Translations under genes and position numbers: made by a program | Source of the DNA: Phoronis australis | Taxonomy: Eukaryota; Animalia; Phoronida | Direction of reading: 5' to 3' | Length of the DNA: 64,000 nucleotides | NCBI GenBank assembly: GCA_002633005.1 | Contig: NMRA01000014.1 | Span: 25,150 to 89,149, forward strand | In this document: one piece after another, positions 11,301 to 22,534 of the stretch | Layout: each line of letters opens with the position of its first letter | Position numbering within the stretch: the stretch's first letter is position 1 | The notes under the pieces: generated by a model | What the model saw: only the letters and a program-made list of their open reading frames with translations | Databases searched by the model: none | Told to the model about the DNA's origin: nothing

Positions 11301-14300
11301 CACGTCTGGTACTACCTGTAGGACAGCCTGCAATTATTTTTCATGACATGAGTCCTATCCGCGATTAGGGTTTAGCTGCTGTGTTTACTAATTGGTAGTT
11401 ACACTTTACATGAGGTGGAAATTTCACTTGCATTATTTTCACCAGTATTTATTCTCATTCCACTAGCATTCGTAATCATTTGCTTAATTCTTTGTGTGTA
11501 GTTGTTCACTAAACTTTGATGGCTGACACAATATATGGCATTATTATTCAGGATACACCGGCGAATGTTTTATGGATAAACAAGAGCGATTTTTTCGACA
11601 TGAAGCCTACAGAAACGAATCCAAAAATACGGTTTCCAAGTGTATAGAGCACTGTAGGGAGAAGAAGTATAGATACGCCGGACTCGAGTACGGAAAGGAG
11701 TGTTTCTGTGGTCACAGCGTATATAAGTACCCTCGACGACCTTTGCACGAATGCGACGTGAAGTGTACGGGAAGTACTGAGATGTGTGGCGGTGTTTGGA
11801 GAATTTCAGTATACTCGCTTGGTAATGCACTATATTCACTTATTTACCAATATTGCATGAATGCGTTTTTCATGTCCAAATGTACCAAAAATAACGTCTC
11901 TCTGAACTATTAGGCCTTTGCACTTATATCTGAAATTAATTTTTGAAAGATTTTTACTAAAGTGATTCATATAAAGGCGCATGCAAAAGCTTTGCCTAGA
12001 CGCAGGTGGCGGCGTGTATTTTTCTCTAATCTTACATTTTTGTGTAATAGTTCAATGGTAGATACGTTTTCAGTAAGAGGGGGTTAGGATTCGCCGCGAA
12101 TCCGAGGCGGGGGAGGTCGTGTAAGATTTTTTTTTGGGTTTTTGTAGCTGATGTCATTTTCCTGGCCACGTTTTTTAATTTTANCCCCCCCCCCCCCCCG
12201 TAGATCTGCCTCTGTAGTTGATGTTAAATTGAAAGCATATCGACCTGTCAAGTTTCAATACTAGTTTGGAAATTTGGAAATTTGCTTCTTGGTTTTACCC
12301 AAGTGTTTCACACAAGTGTTTCGGCAAAAATTACAAGCCCATAAATTTCAACAAACTGAACTGTAGATTTGGGGTTGTTGACAACAATAAACTAAAAAGT
12401 ACGATCTCACTAACAGTTAACATTTCATATTTCAGAGCCATATTACGACTTGAGAGAGGTTTTGACGAAGTCGATATTGTTTTATGAAGCTCAGAGATCT
12501 GGAAAGCTTCCTGCAAACAACCGCATTGCTTGGAGGGGAGACTCTGCTCTGCATGATCACGGCAAGAACGGTGAAGATTTATCCGGTGGCTGGTATACAT
12601 GTAAGTGTTTCTTAAGCATAGCTACAGCATCGTAAGTGAAGACATCATAGTGATTACCTCAGTCCGTAGTCAGAGTTTAATTGAAATGAAAACGCTAAGA
12701 GTTAAGGTGGACTCGAAAAGTACAAGTACCTCCTGCGTCAACACAAGAATAAATGATTCGACAGACGCGCACAACTGGTAACCCCCGGAGTACTTCTTGA
12801 ATAGTTGTAGAACTTTAACGGTGTTAAGGTCATCGGAGATGGAGATCTTGCGTGCCACGAATGCAAATGAGCTCAACTAATAGCTCACGTTTGCAACAAA
12901 TTGACCCGTGAGGATTCTGCTTCGCGACGCGGTAAGACGTTATGTCTCGTCTCGCTTGACGGATTTCATTTACCTGCAGAGCTTGGTAGCTGTCTCGCGG
13001 CAAGAAATATCTAGCCAAAATCACGTTTTTTTATTGAAAAACGCTGCAATACCTCGCGAAGTCTTCATTGCTGTTCTATCGATGTCCTAGCGAGGTCCTA
13101 TGTTGAACTCTACCCTGGCATGCGTAAAACCTCACTTTTGTGCGGGAAGTGGTCTTAAAGGGTCGGTAAGAACTGGCAGATTTTTCTTCTAAGCTCTTAC
13201 ATTTCCGAATTACGGTGATAAGTGACCTAAATAAAAACTTGGTTTTTGGCAGGCTTAATGTAGCTTTAAAGAACTTGTCTCAAATGGTTCCATAGTCAAA
13301 TTGGAAGTGATATCAGGACTACAAAAGAACTGACATTTTCTTATTGCTTGAGATCAGACTGTGCAAGTTAGACTCTCACGGCGTGTCACAATTTTATCCG
13401 CCAAGTATGGTCTCAAGGGGAAATATCTATTCGTCCTTTGCAAATCCAGAAATCAATTCCCATCTCGTGCAACAACTTGAAATAAGTAGGGGTAAGTAGT
13501 CTCTAAGTCAAAATTTCGCTTCTTGATTGGAAAGCGGGTTTACAGAGGAAACAGCAGAGCAAAGGACATGGTTGGTGTCCAGTCGTACCTAACTGCCTTC
13601 CAACTTATTCGGAAAGCCAAGTTTAAACTCCACAGTTCTAACGCTTACTTCATTCCGAGTTTTGACATGTTGAATTGGTGCATATGTATTCTCCTCGGAT
13701 TTATGTGTATACTTATTTCAGCCGGTGGGCATGCCAAGAACAATTTCATTTCTGCCTCGGCCACCACTGTTTTATCATGGGGTCTGCTAGAGTATTGGGA
13801 TGTCTATAAAGACGCAGGTCAACTCGACTGGATGTTGCAGTCTATCAAATGGCCCCTCAAGTATTTGATGAAGTCTTTCGTAAAAGCGGATCCCACTGAC
13901 TACGAATTCTACGTTCAGGTAAGTTCAATTTTTACGCATGACAACAATTTCACCTCAAGGTCGTAACTTCCAATTTTGCTCCCAACGCTTCTTCTCATAT
14001 ACTCTGTGCAGATTTAGCCCTTGCATGTTTGCGCCGGCTTTCACCCCCGCACGCGTCGGCCATTTTCACCGCACAGTAAACGGCTGACAACTACCAGTGG
14101 TCCATCGTCGTCGCCTCGTTTTCAGTTGCCTTTTCTAATAACAAATTTTTAGCAAATGGCTATTTCTGATAAAATCATTGTAAAAGCTAATAACTTCAAG
14201 ATGTTTTATCTTACCCGAATAGCCTCGACCCTAAAACCGATTACTCTACGCACAAAAACAAAATAAGTAATAAAACGTTTTAAACTTCTTTTGCGAACGA

Positions 14301-22534: not shown

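Follow-up and report, generated by a model that had tools for sequence, protein, structure and literature searches.

What can a GH9 protein still do when the DAGD motif, which carries the catalytic base of the family, is replaced by TSGG? In animals, genes of this family tend to be recorded as digestive cellulases on the strength of their annotation only. In inverting GH9 enzymes, the second Asp of the motif acts as the base, the first as an essential helper and a Glu as the acid, as described in excerpts of three papers (PMC6032398, PMC4221708, PMC11083476). The window, i.e., the whole 64,000-nucleotide stretch of Phoronis australis that was analysed, is animal DNA with spliceosomal introns.

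The spliced model described an intact gene with 11 coding exons, extending from 5255 to 23757 on the forward strand and encoding 560 aa with zero internal stops. Exon 1 (5255..5339), located just downstream of a TATA-like run, contains the ATG and the predicted signal peptide, and exon 2 (11552..11821) encodes a WSC domain. The GH9 domain and its tail are encoded by exons 3–11. Exon 3 (12436..12600) contains the start of GH9 with Thr173 (codon 12597-12599) in place of D55 of T. fusca Cel9A (D54 in termite NtEgl), exon 4 (13722..13918) carries Gly176 (13727-13729) in place of the base D58 (NtEgl D57) and exon 5 (14701..14860) encodes Glu246-Asp247 (14719-14724) at the position of D124-H125, followed by the kept Trp250. 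Ser328-Trp329 (17692-17697) in exon 6 (17588..17699) stand for F205-Y206. The DEIVW and WDDK motifs are kept in exon 7 (18774..18924), as are the cleft residues Trp424, Arg428 and Tyr429 of the WGSLRY motif in exon 8 (19925..20075) and His483 in exon 9 (20814..20979), where Ser484, a common variant, replaces Arg. The acid Glu536 (22489-22491), corresponding to E424 of Cel9A and E412 of NtEgl, and the DYNA motif are kept in exon 10 (22341..22534). Exon 11 (23726..23757) encodes the C-terminal tail and the stop, with AATAAA about 100 bases downstream. The initial annotation had described nine open exons; the frame was indeed open in all of them, but the gene has 11 coding exons, two upstream ones having been missed.

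Three raw RNA runs from one study (X2, X3 and X4; 18-19% of each) were mapped to positions 11000-23000 of the window, and a fourth set (X1) comprised contigs of another study, presumed to be RNA. Eight internal joints, from 11821/12436 through 20979/22341, were present in every run (4/4), and the reads over exons came from a single strand only. The 12600/13722 junction (GT..AG), on which the TSGG motif depends, was covered by 147 reads in X4 as well as by an X1 contig. In X2 (112 reads) and X3 (95 reads), the join ran from 12598 to 13722 and two letters were inserted; the junction is the same, the Thr codon being altered synonymously at 12599. The GGWY-TSGG-HAK sequence was encoded in all four runs X1–X4, which bore out both the junction and the replacement of DAGD claimed previously. 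No other joint leading out of exon 12436..12600 was found among the joints listed for the four runs, and no DAGD exon was detected in a six-frame scan of the window; alternative splicing to a hidden DAGD exon was rejected on these grounds. The two outer joints, 5339/11552 and 22534/23726, were placed by the consensus of loose read ends rather than by mapped junction reads: the end of exon 1 was matched by loose ends before 11552 (123, 74 and 167 reads) and the start of exon 11 by those behind 22534 (130, 79 and 136 reads and an X1 contig). With the motif confirmed by RNA and an open frame of 560 aa, the gene is expressed and, as had been proposed, intact.

Several other features of the window were recorded. 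The regions 14832-15966 and 15968-17039, separated by a single N, are two copies with an identity of 97.3% across 1067 aligned bases, and they include the 3' end of exon 5; this duplication (14832-17039) probably arose where two haplotypes overlap at a join of the assembly. A joint from 15994 to 17586 was seen in 3-6 reads per run with short sides, likely due to ambiguous placements. In the intron just behind exon 7, a 42-base unit repeated 4.1 times (19077-19249) is a copy of the 3' end of this exon, including the WDD motif, and had little RNA depth. The intronic repeat at 21430-22120 was covered by reads of both orientations that carried numerous mismatches; it is likely to belong to a dispersed mobile element, the transcripts stemming from copies elsewhere. 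The gene for COP9 signalosome subunit 7 (CSN7) is located at 51835-58148 on the forward strand, with the first coding exon matching PF22061 (E 1.2e-14) and the middle joints being inexact. On the reverse strand (~37240-37500 and 40780-40800), a gene with a Pro-Gln-Gly-Tyr repeat exon gave a weak XYPPX match; similar repeats are found at the N-terminal end of scramblase or CYSTM proteins.

The encoded protein begins with a predicted signal peptide. Residues 1-22 resemble such a peptide, with the hydropathy peak at residues 6-24 and no other window above 1.4, hydropathy being the sole basis of this call. Residues 29-117 form a WSC domain (PF01822, E 1.2e-18, 67.6 bits against a cut-off of 27.8) with eight cysteines (Cys 34, 59, 63, 79, 81, 96, 100 and 107), which was overlooked in the first reading. 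The best PDB match of this domain was the WSC of Kremen1 (E 1.6e-10). Glucan binding by WSC domains is known from fungal proteins; Kremen1 uses its WSC for protein binding, which counts against the glucan-binding role favoured below. Residues 120-550 constitute the GH9 domain: all eight GH9 exons scanned matched consecutive parts of the PF00759 profile (E 2.7e-17 to 0.004) and six of the eight passed its gathering score singly. PROSITE PS00592 (region II) in its revised form, taken from PMC6032398, matched despite HHS, a weak test as only 23 of 58 homologues match this pattern. PS60032, the pattern of the DAGD base motif matched by 54/58 homologues, failed at 4 of 18 positions. By sequence, the protein belongs to GH9 and does not qualify as an active inverting endoglucanase. 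An (alpha/alpha)6 barrel would be expected from the ~50% identity to close homologues of solved GH9s.

Mapping to structures placed Thr173 and Gly176 at D54 and D57 of NtEgl, Asp247 at H124 of NtEgl (position 124 of 1ks8) and at position 125 of 1js4, and Glu536 at the acid of both enzymes. Trp329 occupies the Tyr of the FY motif, which is taken here to be Y206 of Cel9A. Such an alignment means that all four base-site columns were replaced, D55/D58/H125/Y206 of Cel9A being Thr/Gly/Asp/Trp in this protein. Among 58 full-length homologues, D55, H125 and Y206 were conserved in 100% and D58 in 98%. The water network of the two Asp residues also includes Tyr206 and His125, and D58 mutants of Cel9A lose nearly all activity.

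A column was considered conserved if kept in at least 90% of the 58 full-length homologues, which gave 139 columns. In the studied protein, 120 of these were kept and 19 were changed (homologue median 3, maximum 19). All four base-site columns were within the 19 changed ones, with a chance of 2.6e-4 for a set of columns chosen after the sequence was seen. This result agrees with the proposal that the changes are concentrated on the base/water site. The substitutions reported before (DH..W to EDELW, FY to SW and HHR to HHS) were all present in the spliced model, and so were the segments described as retained, i.e., those around the acid Glu, at WDDK and at WGSLRY. The kept cleft residues include Trp250, Trp372, Trp424, Arg428, His483, Asp527, Arg529, Glu536 and Tyr541. 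The HHS variant, previously counted as a piece of the rebuild, was rejected as such and turned out to be ordinary variation: the Arg was absent in 11/73 aligned homologues and 33/149 aligned representatives, the PS00592 pattern still matched and PMC6032398 makes the same point.

The initial annotation had called for TSGG-type orthologues among animal GH9s. The search with exon 4 gave 5 matches among 13 candidates and that with exon 3 gave 452 matches, the best 120 of which were examined; a profile made from the exons of this gene, one canonical enzyme and L002, a metagenomic GH9 described below, was used to take the best 150 representatives from 10,722 matches. The best full-domain identity was 53-54%, with 50-54% for animal enzymes. 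Among the 273 GH9 proteins compared, neither an orthologue nor the TSGG base motif was detected and none carried a WSC domain, weak negatives given the word seeding, length limits, 50% clustering and use of best matches only. The Asp at D55 was present in 108/109 aligned sequences among the first 124 proteins. The WSC-domain query gave 2 matches of 3 candidates, neither being GH9. The literature searched contained no description of a WSC-GH9 cellulase, the papers on WSC and cellulase being fungal surveys as judged by their listing, and none on GH9 pseudoenzymes.

Loss of the base itself was a different matter. Ten of 146 scored representatives (four of the best 150 being dropped for gaps) were devoid of one or both Asp residues, a proportion which gives no family-wide rate as the profile was biased towards base-less forms. 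Both were absent in three of the ten and the acid was kept in four. The named cases are Cloeon XP_065337461 (mayfly), Cherax XP_053646460 (crayfish), Glandiceps XP_077990543 (acorn worm) and Ciona F6RWX2 (sea squirt), with Pinctada KAK3104432 (oyster) as a further base-less GH9. The uniqueness implied for the studied gene was thus not upheld: GH9 paralogues without the base occur repeatedly, in more than one animal lineage, and they also appear in print, where an excerpt of PMC6032398, citing Davison and Blaxter 2005, mentions a few sea-squirt isoenzymes with the base Asp changed to Gly and activity undetermined. With rows not all independent, H125 was changed in 8/10 base-less representatives vs. 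2/136 others and the acid in 6/10 vs. 1/136 others; Y206 was changed in 0/10. The mixed replacements of H125 (F, N, R, E and S) look like a release of constraint rather than a fixed substitute base. Sixteen rows were altered at a catalytic-site column, for which the tree needed 8 changes, at least four of them forced by well-supported branches, and loss at the catalytic site is therefore probably recurrent in GH9. In quick trees, in which the studied protein had a long branch, no base-less GH9 grouped with it, and neither the gene nor its phylum was placed. Two of the base-less proteins, P0216 (TAGN) and P0269 (EAGN), were joined with full support; both Asp residues are lost, H125 is F and the acid is kept, which suggests a conserved base-less, acid-kept GH9 lineage. 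P0225 and P0234 combine a thyroglobulin type-1 repeat with GH9 and have lost the first Asp and the acid.

A metagenome motif scan revealed only two GH9 loci, L001 and L002, which represent one GH9 type, and none of the 7 loci found in the prokaryote motif scan was GH9. L002 (43-2691, forward strand), the genomic counterpart of which is L001, encodes Sushi, CBM2-like and GH9 domains. Its product is of the animal type, 43% identical to the studied protein, and has an HDGG base motif with the D58G and H125D changes and Asp as the acid. It changes 10 of the same 19 conserved columns (p 0.002). The two proteins were not joined in free quick trees, but a clade joining them was not rejected by the AU test (p 0.62 and 0.46). 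ESM Atlas matches of L002 were GH9 clusters only, and no exact match was found in the protein collection. A possible identity of L002 as a house protein of larvaceans was unsupported, as GH9 or cellulase is mentioned 0 times in PMC3390340. Whether related to the studied gene or of separate origin, L002 is a GH9 of the animal type that lacks the base.

The remaining question was whether the altered gene is maintained or decaying. Among the exonic differences listed (at least 17), 10 were synonymous and 7 non-synonymous, and in this partial, within-species set the synonymous excess relative to 21% synonymous sites was significant (p 9e-4; pN/pS ~0.19). Such a synonymous lean points to maintenance. 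It is very unlikely that the gene is a duplicate under relaxed selection, still transcribed and slowly decaying. The long branch (1.1-1.2 changes per column), the empty orthologue searches and the 7/17 non-synonymous differences would fit with decay, which is disfavoured by the synonymous excess and by the open frame, with 560 codons and 10 introns free of stops and frameshifts despite ~50% divergence. The clustering of changes on one functional site and the clean splicing in four runs are also against it. Taken together, the data argue for a genuine GH9 gene that is expressed and maintained, in which the base site has been rebuilt and the domain partner is new. Its novelty lies in the fusion to WSC and in a rebuild that keeps the acid and turns Tyr into Trp.

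The function considered somewhat more probable than not is the binding of glucans without hydrolysis, by a secreted pseudo-cellulase that would serve as a lectin. The predicted signal peptide would direct the protein out of the cell. With the four base-site residues replaced, little or no hydrolysis is expected: no water would be activated, and glycan chains would be bound and cut at most at a trace rate. Trp329 may fill the space of the two lost Asp residues and add a stacking surface, and the kept cleft, with the WSC as a second site, could still bind glycan. The role may be immune recognition, matrix binding or an aid to digestion. A non-hydrolytic binding role had been suggested before and remains the preferred reading; the WSC domain fused in front of GH9, which escaped the first reading, adds weight to it. 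Some observations are against it. The acid and the entire acid side are intact, in contrast to the acid lost in 6/10 base-less representatives; the change of H125 to Asp sets a new carboxylate beside the former base position; the D58G and H125D pair recurs in L002; and cellulases devoid of the canonical base may remain active, as in the examples below.

The same observations would suit an inverting hydrolase, probably acting on another glycan, with its base moved to Asp247 (the old H125) or Glu246, either of which would activate water directly or via a water chain in the space left by D58G. Such a relocation is unlikely, even though the acid and cleft are retained, a new carboxylate is present in the H125 column and L002 shares both changes along with 10 of the 19 altered columns. 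Moved or unusual bases are also known among GH8 subfamilies. According to excerpts, GH45 subfamily C (PcCel45A) cleaves without a canonical base (PMC5829257) and the expansin-like GtEXPN_133317 cuts xylan via a second Asp (bioRxiv 2025.10.08.681111). However, the H125 column of the ten base-less representatives (F, N, N, R, E, S, F, N, H and H) contains no conserved carboxylate, Y206 is also lost in the studied protein and an Asp would be shorter than the His it replaces. The D58G and H125D pair is no mark of an evidently active enzyme, as in L002 the acid is shortened to Asp and W313 and Y429 are lost. Less probable still is a single-acid enzyme, in which Glu536 would protonate the bond and the attacker would be other than activated water: a hydroxyl group of a sugar, with anhydro or transfer products as the outcome, or else an anion, e.g., phosphate held in the Thr-Ser-Gly-Gly loop. 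The acid is kept and small hydroxyl and Gly residues stand in place of the two Asp residues; moreover, in the parts of the sources used, inverting phosphorylases need one catalytic residue and some are (alpha/alpha)6 barrels (PMC8950772), and mutants of inverting enzymes act as glycosynthases, a GH9 glycosynthase being cited (PMC6151457). Such chemistry nevertheless fits poorly with the predicted secretion, since the absence of a signal peptide is given as a phosphorylase marker (excerpt of PMC8950772). No new conserved basic residue was seen near the site, a cleft Arg is lost and no natural GH9 with such chemistry was found in the literature searched. A broader formulation, tentative and rather improbable, is a rewired GH9 with Glu536 as the acid and Asp247 as the base (or with hydroxyl or anion attack), which would be the first natural GH9 to function in the absence of the DAGD pair, with the WSC domain directing it to a new glycan. 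If so, the D58G/H125D swap seen in L002 as well would point to a route taken more than once.

Together with the mayfly, crayfish, acorn worm, sea squirt and oyster paralogues, this gene suggests repeated repurposing of GH9 in animals. It provides a clean test case, being expressed and predicted to be secreted, with the acid kept, the base site rebuilt and a new putative binding domain. If the protein is a lectin, GH9 would join the glycosidase folds that animals have turned into sensors of glycans, and any catalysis would represent a new GH9 chemistry.

In comparison with known systems, the protein resembles inverting phosphorylases (GH94 and GH65), as described in part of PMC8950772, in having a single acid and no protein base, on an (alpha/alpha)6 barrel in some of them, but those enzymes are typically without a signal peptide, which is predicted here. 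The kept acid and absent canonical base are also found, according to the excerpts used, in GH45 subfamily C (PcCel45A) and GtEXPN_133317, which have an unrelated fold and show measurable cleavage through a non-canonical second residue of their own. The PF00759 domain, the acid Glu and the cleft residues are common to NtEgl (1ks8), earthworm EF-EG2 (3wc3), the mollusc CBM2-GH9 enzymes and T. fusca Cel9A (1js4). Unlike in those endoglucanases, D55/D58, H125 and Y206 are absent, and a WSC is present as opposed to the CBM2 of the mollusc enzymes. With the base-less GH9 paralogues, the protein shares the loss of one or both base Asp residues, usually along with H125, from an otherwise complete GH9. 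The Ciona, Cloeon, Glandiceps, Cherax and Pinctada paralogues also change the acid, which is kept here, and all ten base-less representatives keep Y206 and none carries a WSC. The closest pattern is that of P0216 and P0269, with both Asp residues lost and the acid kept. The catalytic carboxylates have likewise been lost in betaGRP/GNBP (GH16-derived) and in chitinase-like lectins (GH18-derived), which are secreted glycan binders with an added binding domain. As the domain of the studied protein is GH9 and not GH16-like, the likeness to betaGRP/GNBP would be a functional analogy only, with a putative immune role.
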